Shown here: positions 3,208 to 12,164 of the stretch, one piece after another
Layout of the letters: every line of letters starts with the position of its first letter
Position numbering within the stretch: the first letter of the stretch is position 1
Virus record (IMG/VR): IMGVR_UViG_2713896777_000009
DNA length: 15,296 bases
Direction: 5' to 3' (one strand)
Source: a virus
Taxonomy: Duplodnaviria; Heunggongvirae; Uroviricota; Caudoviricetes
Program-made: the position numbers and the translations under genes
Notes under the pieces: model-generated
The model's input: the letters and a program-made list of their open reading frames with translations, nothing else
What the model was told of the DNA's origin: nothing
Database searches by the model: none

Positions 3208-3566
3208 TCATTCCCCATTTCGGTGATGGTCAGTTCCAGCCTCCCACCTTTGGTAACAGGCATCTTCACAACGCGGTAATCAACGACCTGAGCATCATCC
3301 AGCCAGAAACCTGCTTTAGTGAGTGCGTCAAAAGCGGCTTTTTGCAGATTATCCAGGTCACGGCGACGGCGATCCGGCATGTGGCACTCAATGCGGATTT
3401 TCACAGGCATAGCCAAGCCGATATCCAGCATTGCGTTTTTAATGATTCGGGCGACGTTATCGCGGTATGCCTGCCCCTCTGCGCTGACGTGCGTGCGCCC
3501 GCGATTATGGCGGTAATAGCGATTATTGCTCGGAGGCCAGGGTAATGTGATGCTGTAGGTATTCAC
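3204..3566 (-). CDS. rusA: Holliday-junction resolvase RusA (120 aa, GTG start)
   Basis: Translation (M)[122 protein letters not shown] start overlaps the ybcO stop (GTGA); RBS AGAGGGGG upstream. Confidence 0.85.
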
Positions 3567-3853
3567 GCCTTGATTACCCCCTCTTTCAGCCAGATAACCT
3601 GCGTTCTCGCCATACCTTCCAGCGCGCATTCTTTTGCGTACTCAGCATCGACAAAATGCGTGCGGCGGTCGATTTCGTCGTGACAGGCAGAACAGGCAAT
3701 GGTGGCAATAAGGTCTGGCGGTTTAATACCGGTGCCACACAGTCCAGCCAGCCGGATATGTGCCAGTACAGACGTTTCAGGGTTGCCATTGCATACGCCA
3801 GGGATTCTTACCTGGCATTCGCGACCACGCGCTGCTTTTCTCAAATCAGCCAT
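3563..3853 (-). CDS. ybcO: nin-region protein YbcO-like (Cys/His-rich, putative nuclease, DUF1364-like)
   Basis: Translation [99 protein letters not shown] 3853 preceded by AGGAGG and overlapping the ninE stop. Confidence 0.75.
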
Positions 3854-4016
3854 GATTCCTCCTTGCTGCCAGTCGCAACCATTTTTTATCAACCAGGCTG
3901 GCGGTATATCCGAGCAGTGTTGGTATTTCGGATGGTTTTAGCTCAGGCTTACGCTTACGACGATTTGGTACTCTGTAGATGTGTCCGTTCATGACACGAA
4001 TAAGCGGTGTAGCCAT
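3846..4016 (-). CDS. ninE: NinE (56 aa)
   Basis: Manual translation [59 protein letters not shown] overlaps the ybcN stop (TAATG). Below the ORF-track cutoff. Confidence 0.75.
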   Translation of the reverse strand: MATPLIRVMNGHIYRVPNRRKRKPELKPSEIPTLLGYTASLVDKKWLRLAARRNHG

Positions 4017-4471
4017 TACGCCTCCTGCTTGTCGCGCAGCAGCTGGAACTCGCAGCTCTGCGGAATAGTCAGGTGGCAGCCAATATTCATCGCCCAGGCT
4101 TCAACCTTACACAGGAAGACATACATCTCTCCGGTATCAAGATCGGAGGTATGGCGTAACGACTGGATAGTAGTGATTTCGCCGGTTACGACATCAACCA
4201 GGTCCTTGGTTTCATAACCGAGGTATGTGTGTTTGAGAGCATCTTTTACCCATGCTGCGGTAGCGAACGATTTCCCCCTGCGGATAAGGTATTCACTGAT
4301 TTCGCTGTACCACATGTGGCTAAGTGCATTCTGGGAAAGACTGCGTCTCTCGCGCCACGGTTTAAGCACCATGCGAAAGCACTTGCCGTCTTCCAAATAA
4401 GGCTGGAGCTGCTGACCGATAGCGGTGAAGTTACCGCGATGCAGTTTGATGCCGTCTTGTGGGAGGTTCAC
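4016..4471 (-). CDS. ybcN: NinB/Orf-family recombination protein (DLP12 YbcN-like), GTG start
   Basis: 151-aa [65 protein letters not shown]...; RBS GGAGGT 5 nt before GTG 4471. Confidence 0.8.
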
Positions 4472-4506
4472 GCTTCACCTCCGCAGAGGTCAAACGCTGG
4501 ATAAAG

Positions 4507-4599
4507 AAAATCGCAGGTGCATTTCTGCATCTGTGACGGGAGAAGATAGTTTAGATTGTATGTGCGCATAAACGTCCCCGTTTAGCGCAGAAGTCACCG
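4507..4599. repeat. 93-bp direct repeat, copy 1 (left boundary of the HEPN/Bro-N cargo segment)
   Basis: aaaatcgcaggtgcatttctgcatctgtgacgggagaagatagtttagattgtatgtgcgcataaacgtccccgtttagcgcagaagtcaccg matches 6829..6921 in the same orientation with about 5 mismatches. Contains an internal imperfect palindrome GCGCATAAACG/CGTTTAGCGC. Confidence 0.9.
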
Positions 4600-4620
4600 G
4601 AGGAGTTCAAACTCCGGTGA
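4591..4620. terminator. Perfect 9-bp stem hairpin (TCACCGGAG-gagttcaaa-CTCCGGTGA) at the end of repeat copy 1
   Basis: Inverted repeat read directly; only weak T-tracts flank it, so terminator function is uncertain. Confidence 0.35.
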
Positions 4621-4692
4621 CTTAATTATGACAAGTTGATTATTGAAAATCAAAAGTCATTTAAACAATAATGATACCCAGCAAGAGATTTC

Positions 4693-5094
4693 TTATTTTA
4701 ACTCATAGATCAGACAGTCAACGATTTCTAAACCATTTACCATAGAATTAGAAACGCGAACTTTACCATCGTTGACTCTAGCAAATCCTTTTAACATTTT
4801 ATAAACAAAAGCTGAATCCCCCTTAGCCTCAATTGCTTCTAATGGTATCGGCTTATACTTTTTTGATATGCTATTTCTATTTATCTCACTGATTTTTCTA
4901 TATATTTCTGCCGGCCCACGTTCTGAGAAGTCACTGATAACTAAAATATATCTCCAAGATAGATCTGGGTAATAAAACCACATTGCAGCATCAATAGTTA
5001 AATTCTGTAACTTGAGTTTTTTTAACAAAAATTGACCTGAGAATTCCATATCTTTTGTCAACTCTCTGCCGATTACCAGTGTGCTTTTACCCAT
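4693..5094 (-). CDS. Hypothetical protein (133 aa), downstream overlapping partner of the HEPN gene; no recognisable nucleotidyltransferase motif
   Basis: ORF MGKSTLVIGRELTKDMEFSGQFLLKKLKLQNL...; ATG 5094 with GGAG RBS 7 nt upstream, lying inside the last 22 nt of the HEPN gene in another frame. AT-rich, unlike flanking phage genes. Confidence 0.6.
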   Translation of the reverse strand: MGKSTLVIGRELTKDMEFSGQFLLKKLKLQNLTIDAAMWFYYPDLSWRYILVISDFSERGPAEIYRKISEINRNSISKKYKPIPLEAIEAKGDSAFVYKMLKGFARVNDGKVRVSNSMVNGLEIVDCLIYELK

Positions 5095-5489
5095 TTCAAA
5101 ACTCCAGAATTTTGGTCACCTACAGCATCAAACAATTGTTCGGCCATAGCTTTACTTATGTTATTGTCGTATCTAAATTGCTCGCTCCAGTCTTTAACGA
5201 CCGACCAGTTAATCTCCAACGAAACATCATTTTTTGCGTCAGCAATCAAAATTTGATGTAAGTTGGCAATTTTGAGAAGTTGCGACAAATCATGAGTATA
5301 TGAATCATTTACGACTTTTTTGTTTGGAAACTCATGTTGTAAAAATGACTTGGCAATACAGGCCTTCAATGCACATTCAACTGCATACCCACAAAGATAA
5401 TATGCACCATGAAAAAAGCCATGATCAAGCAAGCATTTGGCCTCATTAAGCCTAGTGTCAGATAATGCTTCAAGGTCGTTTTTATTCAT
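5073..5489 (-). CDS. HEPN-domain protein (138 aa; Pfam HEPN PF05168-like fold, without a clear Rx4-6H motif)
   Basis: Translation ...HGFFHGAYYLCGYAVECALKACIAK...YTHDLSQLLKIANL...EQFRYDNN... has HEPN-like helices, an H-D-L motif and an RY motif. Candidate sigma70 promoter upstream on the minus strand (-10 TATAAT 5523..5528, -35 TTCCTA 5547..5552). Confidence 0.62.
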   Translation of the reverse strand: MNKNDLEALSDTRLNEAKCLLDHGFFHGAYYLCGYAVECALKACIAKSFLQHEFPNKKVVNDSYTHDLSQLLKIANLHQILIADAKNDVSLEINWSVVKDWSEQFRYDNNISKAMAEQLFDAVGDQNSGVLKWVKAHW

Positions 5490-5788
5490 ACAATTATAAC
5501 TTGAATTATCCTAATTTTTATGATTATACCCTTATCAGGTATGATGTAGGAACTGAAAACAATATTGGATATCATTTTCGGTATTTCTCTGCAAATTCCA
5601 GCCCACAGGATCTCGGTGTACAATCTGTCGCTGATCGCGCAAATTTAGGGTCAATCACTTCATTTTTTGCATCAAACCCTCACTAACATCGAACGATTAT
5701 AGTACAAGTAGTGTTCTTGACTTCTCATTAAACCGTCAGCATTCAATTAATTACAAAATACTAGCGGCATTTCTCTCCCGCAACTTTA

Positions 5789-6397
5789 TTACAGCCGTTC
5801 AGAACGTAAATGCGTCAATACTCGACTCCACTTATCATCCTGCCACGGCCGGAATTTTACATGTGCCGTTTCTCTGGCAAGGATTGCCTGTGCCTTATTG
5901 AGTATCCGGGGATATTCTTGTTCGATTGAAGTGAAGCGACCGGCTTCGCGGTGTTCTGCTACCTGAAGAAGCGGAGTGACGTTTTGGCAAGCGGTTAACA
6001 TTGTGTCACTTGCCCGCCATAACCAAGCAAGTGTGCAAAGTTCGTTATCAGTGAATTGTTTTGTGATTGGGGATTGTTGAATTTCTCGATCGAGAATATC
6101 CAGCACCCAGCGGCGGAATTCTTTGGCCACAGGAGTGCGGGCGAACATGGCGATCAGATGGGCGCCACGGAGGGAGAAAATGCGAGTCTTCTTACGATAA
6201 TTTCCTGAGGTCGTTGATTCGACGACCTGAGACATTCCGTCAGTAAACTCATCAATATTTTTGTTGTAGATGTCGGTTACTGCTTTGGTGCTGGCATATT
6301 TTAATGCTGCCGCCAATTCTTTGCTGGTAAACCAGATCTGGTTGTTGTGATTTATAGGAGTGAATTTTACATCGCGGAATGCGAGCTGAGTGACCAT
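5789..6397 (-). CDS. Bro-N domain protein (phage antirepressor/KilA-type N-terminal domain) with an uncharacterised C-terminal domain; start uncertain (ATG 6397 or 6532)
   Basis: Translation from MVTQLAFRDVKFTPINHNNQIWFTSKELAAALKY...RIFSLRGAHLIAMFARTPVAKEFRRWVLDIL matches the Bro-N pattern. The ORF-track start 6634 is TTG and spans a minus-strand terminator, so the long form was rejected. Confidence 0.68.
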   Translation of the reverse strand: MVTQLAFRDVKFTPINHNNQIWFTSKELAAALKYASTKAVTDIYNKNIDEFTDGMSQVVESTTSGNYRKKTRIFSLRGAHLIAMFARTPVAKEFRRWVLDILDREIQQSPITKQFTDNELCTLAWLWRASDTMLTACQNVTPLLQVAEHREAGRFTSIEQEYPRILNKAQAILARETAHVKFRPWQDDKWSRVLTHLRSERL

Positions 6398-6560
6398 AGC
6401 GATAATCTCGTTTTGAATTTGAGCTATCACCACCGACGACGCCAATCGACTGGTGGTGGACTGTGCAAGGTTGGCGTAACCGGTCAAAACGAAATCCGGC
6501 GCTTCCGAAGAAGCCCTCACACAGCCCACCATAATTTTTGTGTAGACGTGCACTGCGCAT

Positions 6561-6586
6561 AAAAAAACCGCGAACGCGGTTATGCG
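6561..6586 (-). terminator. Intrinsic terminator on the minus strand (stem ACCGCG/CGCGGT followed by U7)
   Basis: Plus strand aaaaaaACCGCGaaCGCGGTtatgcg; on the minus strand the hairpin is followed by TTTTTTT. Confidence 0.5.
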
Positions 6587-6828
6587 TCGTTTTGATGTCC
6601 GGGACGCCAATCCCGTGTGCCGATTTTGCGGCAACGCACAGAATATAGCGCCGGATAAATAATGTCGTCAACCCTTGCATATGGGGGGCGCGATGATCAC
6701 TACTACCACCATAATCGCTCCAACTGTTGCAACTACTTTAGGCTAAGACATCACGATTTCCATATCACCTTTAGCCGCCAGACAAACAGAGACTCCCTGT
6801 TCTTGGCTGCCAAAAACACCGAATGCAA

Positions 6829-6921
6829 AAAATCGCAGGTGTATTTCTGCATCTGTGGAGGGAGAAGAGAGTTTGGATTGTATGTGCGCATAAACGTCCC
6901 CGTTTAGCGCAGAAGTCACCG
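6829..6921. repeat. 93-bp direct repeat, copy 2 (right boundary of the HEPN/Bro-N cargo segment)
   Basis: Aligns base for base with 4507..4599 (about 88 of 93 identical). Confidence 0.9.
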
Positions 6922-7149
6922 TAGTTGTTCATATTCTGATGACATGATAATTTCCTATTGAATAGAAAAAATTAACACGACTCATTCTTATGACTGGAAA
7001 AAGCAATCATGCTAATAATCATTGTTGTTCCAGTTCCAAATGCAGCGAAATAATCACCAATATTTTTTCTACCGGTTTCGACTTTGATGCTATATTCTGC
7101 TAACACCTAACTAACACTACGTTTCACACAGCAATTACATGGAAATAAC

Positions 7150-7497
7150 ATGACTATCAAAGCGACTGACATAGAGATTCTTCATCGTTATGCTGAAGGG
7201 GTAATGGAACGTTCTAACCATCATGCAAAAAATGTTGGTGCAGCCGCTCTTACATTGCTAGGAGGTGTTATCTGGAAAGCCCTGCCCGGATCAATCGAGA
7301 TAAGAACGTATAACGGAAGTCTTGCAAATATGGTGTGGTGGCAAAGCGAAAGAACATTAAAAAATTATGCAATCTCATACAACCATAATTCATGTGAAAT
7401 TGAAATGAGAGATGAATCAGTCAAAGGTGCTGTATTATTTAGCATTTCCAACGAAACCACTCCAGAAAAAATATTATCACAGCTTTCTGAGCTTTAA
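7150..7497 (+). CDS. Hypothetical protein (115 aa), opposite strand to the early-right operon, between P and the nin region; moron-like
   Basis: ORF MTIKATDIEILHRYAEGVMERSNHHAKNVGAAALTLLGGVIWKALPG...; preceded by 230 bp of AT-rich sequence and followed by a GC hairpin at 7502..7519. No family recognised. Confidence 0.55.
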   Translation: MTIKATDIEILHRYAEGVMERSNHHAKNVGAAALTLLGGVIWKALPGSIEIRTYNGSLANMVWWQSERTLKNYAISYNHNSCEIEMRDESVKGAVLFSISNETTPEKILSQLSEL

Positions 7498-7501
7498 TTA
7501 A

Positions 7502-7519
7502 AGGCGGTGCTAACACCGC
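7502..7519. terminator. Hairpin GGCGGTG-ctaa-CACCGCC between the convergent 115-aa gene and P; U-tract on the minus strand
   Basis: Inverted repeat read directly; on the minus strand it is followed by TTTAATTAAAG. Confidence 0.45.
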
Positions 7520-7701
7520 CCATACCATTACTCCACATCTTACGCAACTTGATAATTATGCTCTATTAAATACCCACAATATTTCATCAATGCATGGGTC
7601 AGCTACAAAATGTTTACCGTGGTAATTCCTGTTTTCGCAACATCTCAAAAGAACAATAAACACTGTATTTCTTCAAGTAACGAAGAATCTTTCTTTGCCC
7701 G

Positions 7702-8403: not shown

Positions 8404-9413
8404 AGATCCACCCCGTAAATCCAGTCTGTGTTTGTCAGGTCGAGTTTTGGTTTGCCGACTGTCACGCCAGCCTGTTGCTTGTTCCGGTTGATTTCGAGCT
8501 GGGTCCACTTGTCGCGGAGTTTGGCCGGACTCAGCACGTTACCGGACNNNNNNNNNNNNNNNNNNNNNNNNNNNNNNNNNNNNNNNNNNNNNNNNNNGCG
8601 GAGTTTGGCCGGACTCAGCACGTTACCGGACCAGAAGTTGTCCTGGCAGGCCCAGCGGAACAGTACACACATGTCGCGGTGGTTACGTCCATCACGTTCA
8701 CGCATCAGACGGATATCGTTAGCCCACCCTGCAAAATTCGGTTTTCTGGCTGATGGCGCGATGGTCTTCACCATGTCAAACATCCACTCTGCGGCGGTCA
8801 GGTCTTCTGCTGTCCCCCACTTGCTGCCGCTCTGAATCGCAGCATCCGCTTTCACCACAGGAAGGTCGTTTTCTGGCAGGTCAGAGGATTCGCCAGAATT
8901 CTCGGACGAATAAGGTTTTATATTGTCTTTTGTTAGTTTGTCTTTTGTGTTTACCTGATTCGGGTAAGTGCCTTTACCTGATTTGGGTAAACTTTTCTTA
9001 CCTGATTCAGGTAAATTTACCTCTTTCAGGTAAACTTTATTTTTCTTACCTGATTCGGGTAATGTTGACCATTCACTGACCACATTATTAATGCCGATAT
9101 TCCGCCCGCTCTGAATAAAAATCCCACGCTTTACCAGAACACTTTTTGCAGCAGAACACTTGTGCGGCAATATCCCGGTCAACTCGGAAAGTTGCTCGTT
9201 GCTCACCCAGTCCAGTTTTTTATTAAAGCCATATGTTTTGCGCATGACAGCCAGGAAGACCAGAAGCTGGTGCTGTGTTAATCCGGCCAGCATTACAGCT
9301 TCCAGCAACTCATTTGCAATGCGCGTATAACCATCATCGAGATCTGCCACGCGCGGCTCCTTTTGTGCCGCATCCGGCACTGGAAAATTGAATATCTCAG
9401 CAGTGTTTGCCAT
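8400..9413 (-). CDS. O: Replication initiator O (lambda O family); N-terminal origin-binding domain differs from lambda, C-terminal P-interaction domain is lambda-like; interrupted by the 8548..8597 gap
   Basis: Translation MANTAEIFNFPVP...VADLDDGY...TYPNQVNTKDKLTKDNIKPYSSENSGESSD...FWSGNVLSPAKLRDKWTQLEINRNKQQAGV...DLTNTDWIYGVDL; ATG 9413 with GGAGG RBS. Iterons lie inside the gene. Confidence 0.9.
   Translation of the reverse strand: MANTAEIFNFPVPDAAQKEPRVADLDDGYTRIANELLEAVMLAGLTQHQLLVFLAVMRKTYGFNKKLDWVSNEQLSELTGILPHKCSAAKSVLVKRGIFIQSGRNIGINNVVSEWSTLPESGKKNKVYLKEVNLPESGKKSLPKSGKGTYPNQVNTKDKLTKDNIKPYSSENSGESSDLPENDLPVVKADAAIQSGSKWGTAEDLTAAEWMFDMVKTIAPSARKPNFAGWANDIRLMRERDGRNHRDMCVLFRWACQDNFWSGNVLSPAKLRXXXXXXXXXXXXXXXXXSGNVLSPAKLRDKWTQLEINRNKQQAGVTVGKPKLDLTNTDWIYGVDL
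8548..8597. other. Assembly/scaffold gap (50 N) flanked by an identical 34-bp sequence on both sides
   Basis: gcggagtttggccggactcagcacgttaccggac occurs at 8514..8547 and again at 8598..8631, indicating overlapping contig ends joined with N. Confidence 0.9.
8896..9064. promoter_or_regulatory. Replication origin within O: five iteron-like palindromic repeats (TTACCTGATTCGGGTAA core) adjacent to an AT-rich stretch
   Basis: Repeats at about 8950, 8974, 8998, 9017 and 9046, each about 19 bp with TTACC...GGTAA symmetry; AT-rich tract 8896..8949 lies on the gene-downstream side, as in lambda ori. Confidence 0.8.
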
Positions 9414-10085: not shown

Positions 10086-10097
10086 GTTAAAGAGCGT
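10086..10097 (-). promoter_or_regulatory. boxA-like element (CGCTCTTTAACA) in the cro-distal intergenic region; no adjacent boxB hairpin
   Basis: Minus-strand sequence matches the boxA consensus CGCTCTT(T)A; no GC stem-loop follows it. Confidence 0.3.
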
Positions 10098-11934: not shown

Positions 11935-12011
11935 GAAAATGCTCGCACCCTTGCATTAGGTAAAGCGATTTTTCATTCCCCATTACCCTCGCTCTTAACC
12001 AATCATCTAAA

Positions 12012-12039
12012 CCCGGCCACCGTGCCGGGTTTTCTTTTG
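12012..12039 (+). terminator. Rho-independent terminator ending the cI/rex-position operon (CCCGGC-caccgt-GCCGGG followed by TTTTCTTTT)
   Basis: GC-rich stem-loop followed by a T-tract on the plus strand; a boxA-like CGCTCTTAA lies about 20 nt upstream at 11990. Confidence 0.7.
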
Positions 12040-12164
12040 CCCTCCCCTCATCATACACCGTTCAAAAAAACCACCACGACCTCGCTTCAGTTATCGCTAT
12101 GCGATGCAAGTCACAAAATAAATCCATCTTAAATACAACCAGTTATATCTAAAACAACCAACAA

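Follow-up and report, generated by a model that had tools for sequence, protein, structure and literature searches.

Why should a lambdoid prophage carry the same short sequence twice, in direct orientation, on either side of a group of accessory genes? The question is raised by a 15,296-nucleotide (nt) stretch of a virus of the Caudoviricetes (IMG/VR record IMGVR_UViG_2713896777_000009), which at its full length is called the window here and in which two direct repeats bracket a cargo segment. A preliminary description of the window saw in these repeats, given as 93 bp with about five mismatches, a module boundary or linker through which cargo could be gained, lost or exchanged by homologous recombination. 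We recognize them as two copies of a leader cassette that opens the nin/Q-proximal operon in lambdoid prophages of the phage 82, DLP12 and phi80 type. Taking the explanation as a whole, we consider it likely that this cassette has been duplicated, that its copies serve as substrates for recombination and that it acts in cis as a gate on the genes behind it. The cores of the two copies, referred to below as L and R, contain parts of three hairpins (H1 to H3) and of a small gene, ylcH:

4507..4599, minus strand: 93-nt core of copy L, with the 3' arm of H1, H2, the first ~21 codons of ylcH, H3 and a U-run; it adjoins ybcN upstream.
6829..6921, minus strand: 93-nt core of copy R, with 5 mismatches to L; it heads an antirepressor module.

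The repeat pair was confirmed at 93 nt and exactly five mismatches (L/R: 4520 C/T, 4536 A/G, 4537 C/A, 4547 T/G and 4553 A/G), with a perfect block of 46 nt shared by both copies (4554-4599 = 6876-6921). A repeat finder extended the pair to 162 nt at 81% identity (4492-4653 versus 6814-6975), the weaker similarity lying mainly on the high-coordinate side, where H1 and a promoter-like site are found. The 93-nt core itself covers the 3' arm of H1, the whole of H2, about two-thirds of the open reading frame (ORF) and H3. Chance can be ruled out, since the next-longest direct repeat in the window is only a 34-mer flanking a run of Ns, and no further direct repeat of more than 34 nt was found in the window. 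The stretch from 4400 to 7100 is 100% identical in 176 complete Escherichia coli genomes, mostly enterohemorrhagic E. coli (EHEC) of O26, O111 and O103 (for example NC_013361, O26:H11 11368, at 622 kb), and therefore the assembly artefact that the preliminary description had allowed for is excluded.

In a phage collection, the 93-mer matched 27 records, including phage 82 (X92588) with 96.8% identity over 93 nt. Copy L is 95 to 98% identical to orf33 of phage 82 and to ylcH of E. coli K-12. The annotation of X92588 gives a putative -35/-10, an inverted repeat designated "possible regulator-binding site," a ribosome-binding site and orf33 directly before orf151, and in phi80 an inverted repeat (IR4) is annotated at the position of H2. 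In K-12, the sequence is ylcH (b4588, 33 amino acids [aa]), which overlaps ybcN in the DLP12 prophage and differs from each of the two window copies at 5 of 93 positions. The sequence itself is thus already known as the orf33/ylcH region; what has not previously been curated, as far as the libraries show, is a three-hairpin leader supported by covariation and its use as the duplicated head of two modules. Neither copy had a family match in Rfam, at the gathering score or at an E value of ≤10, and the sole match touching copy L (SSRC34_2, 18.8 bits) is a chance hit. YlcH matched no protein family in NCBIfam or PHROGs, and in the literature ylcH appears in expression tables only.

The leader is widespread: 4252 of 5426 complete E. 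coli genomes (~78%) contain it, at 6291 places in all and with a median of one copy each, and prophages of Enterobacter, Citrobacter, Trabulsiella, Lelliottia and related genera carry it as well. In phage 82, in DLP12 of K-12 and in most leader-bearing E. coli genomes, there is one copy, directly before ybcN. Such single copies without cargo had been named as the thing to look for, and they are found in these genomes and, with the same flanks as in the window, in NZ_CP114130 and NZ_CP173115 (see below). A degenerate second class of leader, 83% identical, was seen in many genomes, for instance at positions 3501-3593 of two chromosomal loci near fliE/yedK (L004 and L005). It is part of a tiny DLP12-like remnant (emrE-ybcL-ybcM-leader) cut by an IS200/IS605 insertion sequence (IS), at a site that differs from that of DLP12. 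A link of the leader with IS200/IS605 was considered and discarded, the 83% matches under tnpA annotations being this remnant truncated by the IS and the overlap incidental.

The anatomy of the leader was worked out from ~150 copies gathered from IMG/VR, GTDB genomes and GenBank. In the window, it comprises the following elements, in which the RNA units were located with a covariance model (R1) and minimum free energies (MFE) are given with their z scores:

4502..4623, minus strand: predicted leader RNA unit L (147.4 bits; MFE -43.6 kcal/mol, z -4.9), with H1 at 4593-4621, H2 at 4563-4589, a C/U-rich spacer, H3 at 4514-4533 and a U-run at ~4506-4513.
6824..6945, minus strand: predicted leader RNA unit R (136.8 bits; MFE -30.5, z -2.7), with a weakened H1' at 6915-6943 (6-bp stem), H2 at 6885-6911, identical to that of L, and H3 at 6836-6855.
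4625..4653, minus strand: predicted sigma-70-like promoter of copy L (TTGATT-17 nt-CATAAT), with TG before the -10 hexamer.
6947..6975, minus strand: degenerate counterpart of this promoter at copy R (TTAATT-17 nt-AATTAT), recognized from alignments and missed by a consensus scan.
4468..4569, minus strand: leader ORF ylcH/orf33 (33 aa), the stop of which overlaps the GTG start of ybcN (GTGA, at 4471).
6751..6891, minus strand: variant ylcH' of copy R (46 aa), diverging in its tail beyond codon ~24; its end, TGATG, precedes a degenerate small ORF.

The term linker was apt in that the sequence is a recurrent boundary, but not an anonymous one, for it corresponds to a duplicated leader of ~125 to 160 nt with a predicted promoter, hairpins and an upstream ORF (uORF), ylcH. 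The promoter-like site of copy L corresponds to the putative -35/-10 annotated in phage 82. Among related copies, TTGATT is found in 102 of 125, the 17-nt spacing in 117 of 125 and CATAAT in 89 of 130, and hexamers and spacing are kept even though the DNA further upstream is unrelated between genomes. The short minus-strand ORFs reported for both copies do exist, but they start 13 codons further upstream than had been proposed (MRTYN...). Defined by 33 codons and a stop overlapping the ybcN start, ylcH is found in copy L and not in copy R, where RefSeq annotates a truncated ylcH-like pseudogene. Despite in-frame indels, the leader ORF is open in 130 of 131 related copies, with 29 to 33 codons; without exception, its stop codon and the start of the following gene overlap, and whole N-terminal segments are replaced in frame.

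The imperfect palindrome of the preliminary description is real and corresponds to H2, GCGCTAAACG-GGGA-CGTTTATGCGC. Six different stem sequences were found for this hairpin, all with the pairing kept, and its loop is invariably GGGA, a Shine-Dalgarno sequence; the start codon of the leader ORF, AUG or GUG, falls at a constant position within the 3' arm. H1 has a stem of 10 to 11 bp that occurs in many sequences (GUCACCGGAG, GUCGCAGUCGG, UUGCUGACGG, UCUGCCAG and others), frequently with G·U pairs, which work on the sense strand only; this and the ylcH RNA detected in K-12 are indirect hints that this strand is transcribed. Its 9-nt loop (4603-4611 in the window; YYUGAACWM) keeps UGAAC in nearly all copies while the stem varies freely, a conservation that suggests a specific binding partner, either protein or RNA. 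H3 (CAG-A-UGCA GAAA UGCA-C-CUG, followed by the U-run) lies inside the ORF. In a sample of copies anchored on H1/H2, outside H3, it presented one compensatory change (A-U to C-G), changes at the internal mismatch and four copies with the loop replaced and the stem kept. In unit R, a G-to-A change breaks one pair of H3 and turns a Cys into Tyr. A permissive terminator scan picked up H3 in both copies (5 pairs, ATTTTCTT and ATTTTTTG), yet as a weak candidate with a variable U-run, while H1 is strong but followed by UUCUGCGC.

Model R1, built from 14 copies, finds exactly two sites in the window, those of units L and R. In the model alignment of 99 distinct sequences, 97.7% of the cells were paired, compared with 20 to 41% in slid controls, and 20 of the 28 pairs had changed on both sides. 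The covariation score was 0.385 versus 0.02 to 0.06 in the slid controls, a value reached by none of 500 shuffles. Compensatory changes affected 8 of 10 pairs in H1 and 10 of 11 in H2, and folding each variant separately gave the same H1/H2 structure independently of the model alignment. RNAalifold on a plain MAFFT alignment recovered H1 and mispaired H2, since the H2 types were misaligned, and it was replaced by the per-variant folds and the model alignment. The predicted secondary structure of the leader is thus supported by compensatory base changes, and the regulatory element that had been suspected in the palindrome gains support as an RNA hairpin, through which the leader may exert a regulatory role.

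A leader RNA of this kind could also be read as the gene of a trans-acting small RNA (sRNA) of ~110 nt, extending from the promoter to H3 and the U-run, with the ORF incidental. Its architecture is sRNA-like (5' stem-loops, a C/U-rich single strand and a terminator) and its promoter is conserved; RNA of the ylcH locus has been detected in K-12 transcriptomics, with a 2-fold change under microaerobic growth (PMC8910356), and nucleotide changes in the H3 region are mostly nonsynonymous or structure preserving. We nevertheless regard this reading as unlikely, as in-frame indels have not closed the ORF, its overlap with the next start codon is never lost, the U-run is variable, Rfam gave no match at an E value of ≤10 and no paper combining ybcN and sRNA was found.

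The behavior of the leader as a boundary was evaluated by comparing the flanks of 130 copies. The 500 nt upstream of the promoter fell into 82 similarity clusters and the 500 nt downstream into only 14. Upstream, the slot contained ren, emrE-ybcK-ybcL-ybcM (in K-12), PD-lambda-1, CASS14 or the HEPN gene with its partner; downstream of the leader, at least five kinds of first gene or module were seen, namely YbcN-type and lambda NinB-type genes (distant relatives in the Orf family), unrelated ORFs of 271 and 346 aa, or the antirepressor module. Because upstream flanks vary and downstream flanks vary far less, the leader marks the border at which a hypervariable slot meets the conserved nin module, which bears out the expectation that the repeat would prove to be a recurrent boundary. 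The segment between the two copies, 2.3 kb long, and its immediate neighbors are composed as follows:

7150..7497, plus strand: gene of the VCH_CASS14 family (integron cassette protein family, phrog_5959; Pfam 5.7e-20), the upstream flank of copy R, between P and R.
6449..6671, minus strand: regulatory part of the cargo, with a promoter-like site from 6671 to 6642 (TTGACG-18-TATATT), an isrK-type RNA at 6561-6633 and a C4-type antisense RNA at 6449-6536.
5789..6397, minus strand: antirepressor with Bro-N and P22_AR_C domains (Pfam 1e-13 and 7.9e-17; anti-repressor Ant in PHROGs; RefSeq coding sequence).
5073-5489, minus strand: HEPN-domain protein of 138 aa (Pfam HEPN 3e-06; PADLOC PDC-M28A 1.8e-07; phrog_5737).
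4693-5094, minus strand: HEPN partner of 133 aa, overlapping the HEPN gene (phrog_5760 only).
4016..4471, minus strand: ybcN (Orf/NinB-like, PRK09741; NCBIfam 4.3e-83, RefSeq), the first nin gene behind copy L.

In Rfam, the C4-type RNA scored 82.5 bits (gathering score 45) and the isrK-type RNA 64.1 bits (gathering score 50), and a c4-a1b1 match at 6596-6648 overlaps the latter. On these matches, the cargo is identified as an antirepressor module like immI or isrK-anrP of Gifsy-1, residing in a DLP12-type prophage of EHEC. The segment had been described as a HEPN pair plus a Bro-N gene; the Bro-N gene and one HEPN gene stand, but the 133-aa partner is without a HEPN domain, and the isrK- and C4-type RNA genes had been missed. 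This partner has no match in Pfam, NCBIfam or PADLOC, and a HEPN pair or HEPN-MNT toxin-antitoxin system is not established, as it matches no nucleotidyltransferase or known antitoxin family. The HEPN gene and its partner also occur without the antirepressor, upstream of a single leader, at another locus (L062). They seem to behave as a separately mobile two-gene moron and are a candidate toxin-antitoxin or defense pair.

Comparison of two-copy genomes, for which we relied on loci among the matches listed, showed that two leaders come together only where the antirepressor module is present and that copy R belongs to this module in every such genome seen. Copy R always lies 421 to 429 nt before the antirepressor gene; its downstream junction (...GCATTCGGTGTTT...) is common to all, and the DNA upstream of it represents at least four different contexts. 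What follows the antirepressor varies. In the window and at two other loci (L036 and L127), it is the HEPN gene with its partner; in PhiR26_1 and L047, a 169-aa phrog_1779 protein; in IdasGreatGrand, a 118-aa protein; in L037, proteins of 66, 81 (theta-like) and 195 aa; and in a genome that shares the P/CASS14 flank of the window, proteins of 66 and 225 aa. Different cargo between the copies, which the preliminary description had proposed to look for, is therefore found in at least five alternative gene sets.

The corresponding empty site was sought with a query in which window[4016-4599] was joined to window[6922-7520]. It matched in one piece in NZ_CP114130 and NZ_CP173115, where P, CASS14 (a flank common to these genomes and the window), one leader and ybcN follow each other. 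Both genomes match window[4455-4599]+[6922-7520] without a single mismatch over 745 nt and have the L base at each of the 5 diagnostic sites, exactly the product expected if crossing over took place in the 46-nt perfect block. Few records carry the L allele (only 181 at ≥99% identity). Because the empty sites carry this uncommon allele and match the exact crossover product, deletion from a two-copy ancestor is most likely, rather than a state preceding the insertion. The empty-site and alternative-cargo alleles support the idea of a module boundary that mediates exchange of cargo, and the junctions point to recombination within the repeat as the probable cause of the polymorphism.

These alleles also bear on the possibility that the duplication is a passive scar, left by one ancient insertion of the antirepressor module into ylcH, with the copies inert in exchange and the cargo variation arising elsewhere. 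The common downstream junction of all R-type copies would fit such a scar, as would the location of the cargo variation, which is 3' of the antirepressor and not at copy R. We find it improbable, however, given the empty-site allele, in which an uncommon L copy is joined without mismatch to the flank of R, and the presence of R copies in at least four upstream contexts, hence exchanges that end in or beside the leader. A phylogeny of R versus L on the 93 nt was abandoned; with only 3 to 8 nt differences and copies that are probably homogenized, the duplication was not datable in this way.

R-type copies have a peculiarity in the ORF. All of those seen (6836-6855 in the window and the copies of L006, L037, L047, L036, L127 and L007) carry a G-to-A or C-to-T change in the Cys-x-Cys codons or H3 region, resulting in Cys to Tyr at either Cys or in Gln to stop; they represent three separate lineages, and such changes are rare in L-type copies. 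That all three lineages changed a Cys codon or gained a stop suggests that the ORF of copy R is not maintained as a protein. The same pseudogene-like losses could be expected if YlcH were a functional 33-aa Cys-x-Cys peptide, copy R its decaying paralogue and the hairpins secondary, and a 12-residue motif is indeed kept across divergent N- and C-terminal tails. Such a role for YlcH seems to us improbable, though, since H1 and most of H2, the best-supported features, lie outside the ORF, the N-terminal third is swapped wholesale between types (MRTYNPNS, MRPQSELL or VQTTIRTP), some L-type copies have LNG, LIG or LSG in place of QKC with the H3 stem kept, and YlcH is without a family in NCBIfam and PHROGs.

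That the repeats are the ends or target duplications of a cassette moved by a recombinase or transposase, or an artefact of assembly, is highly improbable: direct repeats do bracket the cargo, the leader abuts an IS200/IS605 tnpA in some remnant loci and the window has N gaps, but no recombinase or transposase gene lies between or beside the copies, a 93- to 160-nt repeat at 95%/81% identity is no target-site duplication, the IS adjacency is that of the truncated DLP12-like remnant next to ybcM and the arrangement is identical in the 176 finished genomes.

We thus return to the duplicated leader as recombination substrate and gate. The cassette consists, in order, of the predicted sigma-70-like promoter, H1, H2, the C/U-rich spacer, H3 and U-run within the ORF, and a stop overlapping the start of the first nin gene. 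Cassette L heads ybcN-ninE-ybcO-rusA-ylcG-quuD, and cassette R, with its different ORF tail, the immI/isrK-type antirepressor module, behind which the HEPN two-gene moron is inserted. The two copies, with 46 nt perfect within 93 nt at 95%, would be substrates for homologous recombination of the RecA or Red type, which would delete the cargo or carry it into any leader-bearing phage. For comparison, homologies between lambda and prophages with a longest perfect stretch of 49 bp gave ~2e-6 recombinants per phage (PMC3945230). As a cis-acting gate, the leader would let the first nin gene be translated only via coupling to the uORF; H2 would limit initiation at the uORF start, H3 and the U-run would attenuate transcripts that are not antiterminated and, in this manner, the Q-proximal genes would be kept off in the lysogen. 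The rusA gene of DLP12 needs promoter-supplying insertions for its expression (PMC4118853); an operon so weakly expressed from its own upstream DNA fits a gated leader.

Several points weigh against this reading. The alignment used for the pair counts was fitted to the model, which favors structure. H3 is weak (7 pairs with an internal mismatch), the U-run varies among copies (CGATGTCT, CAATTCTT and CGATATTT), and the invariance of H3 in the main sample is partly a matter of construction, the search pattern lying in H3, while the sample anchored on H1/H2 is small. The promoter, the attenuation at H3 and the coupling to the uORF were all deduced from the sequence. With regard to exchange, all two-copy genomes share the R-side junction, so that the duplication was probably a single old event, one fusion of a leader to the antirepressor module, and not the outcome of repeated insertion. 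Finally, the distal part of ybcN in the empty-site genomes is 9% divergent (29 mismatches, 4139-4454), which implies that at least one further exchange occurred and leaves the direction of the polymorphism unproven.

A broader and quite tentative suggestion, one that we would not expect to hold as it stands, is that temperate phages of enterobacteria possess, in this leader, a cis-acting RNA element not described before. The UGAAC loop of H1 and an "operator" in H2, containing the Shine-Dalgarno sequence and the AUG, would serve as binding sites for a factor of phage or host origin, or for a second RNA, gating the Q-proximal operon, and the whole might be a reusable operon head for accessory modules. 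If this were true, a module that gained a copy of the leader would become both coregulated and recombinationally portable.

With respect to the wider context, the gene order along the direction of transcription is an O-like gene with ori iterons, P, the VCH_CASS14 gene, copy R and a degenerate small ORF; then the promoter-like site, isrK-type RNA, C4-type RNA, Bro-N/P22_AR_C antirepressor, HEPN protein and 133-aa partner of the cargo; and finally copy L, ybcN, ninE, ybcO, rusA, ylcG and quuD. All genes around the repeat are on the minus strand, except that of the VCH_CASS14 family, which is on the opposite strand and is followed by a hairpin, GGCGGTGCTAACACCGCC (~7503-7520). The small ORF just 3' of copy R (6700-6760, minus strand) corresponds to a membrane protein and is coupled to ylcH' by TGATG; it stops after 6 codons in the window (MEIVMS*), reads through in PhiR26_1 (…MEIVMFWPEVVVTVVAAMAVIIMVSIYWG) and is intact in L006 (~5030-5200). 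For recombination, the prophage has genes of its own, namely those for Gam, a RecT-family annealase, a YqaJ exonuclease, YbcN (Orf) and RusA, in line with exchange between the copies. Five iterons of ~22 nt (TTACCTGATTCGGGTAA-like) at 8946-9062, inside the O-like gene, are the expected replication origin. Runs of 50 Ns occur at 226-275 and 8548-8597, the second flanked by an exact 34-nt duplicate (8514-8547 = 8598-8631) in the O/P region. Complete genomes carry this 34-mer once, so gap and duplicate are a scaffolding artefact, and ORF calls across it are unreliable. There are boxA-like sequences at the positions expected for nutR (CGCTCTTTA, 10088-10096, minus strand) and nutL (CGCTCTTAA, 11990-11998, plus strand); the latter is followed by a GC hairpin and T-run (~12013-12040), and no obvious boxB was seen at the former. 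A nut/boxB nature of H1 was considered and rejected. Its loop sequence GAACA resembles the lambda-type GAANA pentaloop, but it belongs to a 9-nt loop without closing pairs, and the boxA-like sites of the window are followed by unrelated sequence, so that no link to N was made.

Taken together, the locus provides a population-backed example of the swapping of accessory genes in lambdoid phages, here an antirepressor switch and a candidate defense pair. A short leader, which ~78% of the complete E. coli genomes contain, forms the border of a hypervariable slot; where it is duplicated, the segment enclosed by the two copies is there, missing or exchanged for another in EHEC prophages that are otherwise identical. 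We consider this a case of ordinary but well-documented phage mosaicism that does not overturn current views.

The closest known systems are phage 82 orf33 and K-12 ylcH, with which copy L shares, in addition to its 95 to 98% identity, the position overlapping orf151/ybcN and the 33-codon ORF. Phage 82 and DLP12, however, have one copy, whereas here a second one, with a different ORF tail, heads an antirepressor module, and what was annotated in phage 82 as a possible regulator-binding site here behaves as an RNA stem-loop with a covarying stem. The repeats also resemble the boundary ("linker") sequences and morons of lambdoid phages, as seen in the modular theory and in homologous or homeologous exchange by Red or RecA (PMC2327257, PMC3945230), in being a short conserved sequence between nonhomologous segments, with accessory genes inserted on one side and alleles with and without them whose junctions lie in the conserved sequence. 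They differ in that the boundary here would be a functional unit (promoter, structured leader and uORF) and, with two copies in the same genome, also makes intramolecular deletion possible.

The leader further occupies the map position of lambda tR2 (between ren and ninB), which separates the replication genes from the first nin gene, and both are hairpin-containing noncoding elements met by transcription from PR. Yet tR2 is a simple GC hairpin with a T-run, without promoter or uORF, whereas the hairpins of the leader lack a strong U-tract (H1) or are weak (H3), and there is no homology to tR2 in sequence or structure, the best match of model R1 in lambda being 6.3 bits (E = 0.37). As a three-hairpin leader RNA that is widespread, not in Rfam and located at the tR2 position, it is a reasonable candidate for curation. 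Finally, the cargo is like immI of P1/P7 (c4-icd-ant) and isrK-orf45-anrP of Gifsy-1 (PMC4825925): C4 and isrK RNAs precede a Bro-N/P22_AR_C antirepressor, with order and strand unchanged. This likeness concerns the cargo only; here the module has a ylcH-type leader in front of it and a HEPN moron behind it.

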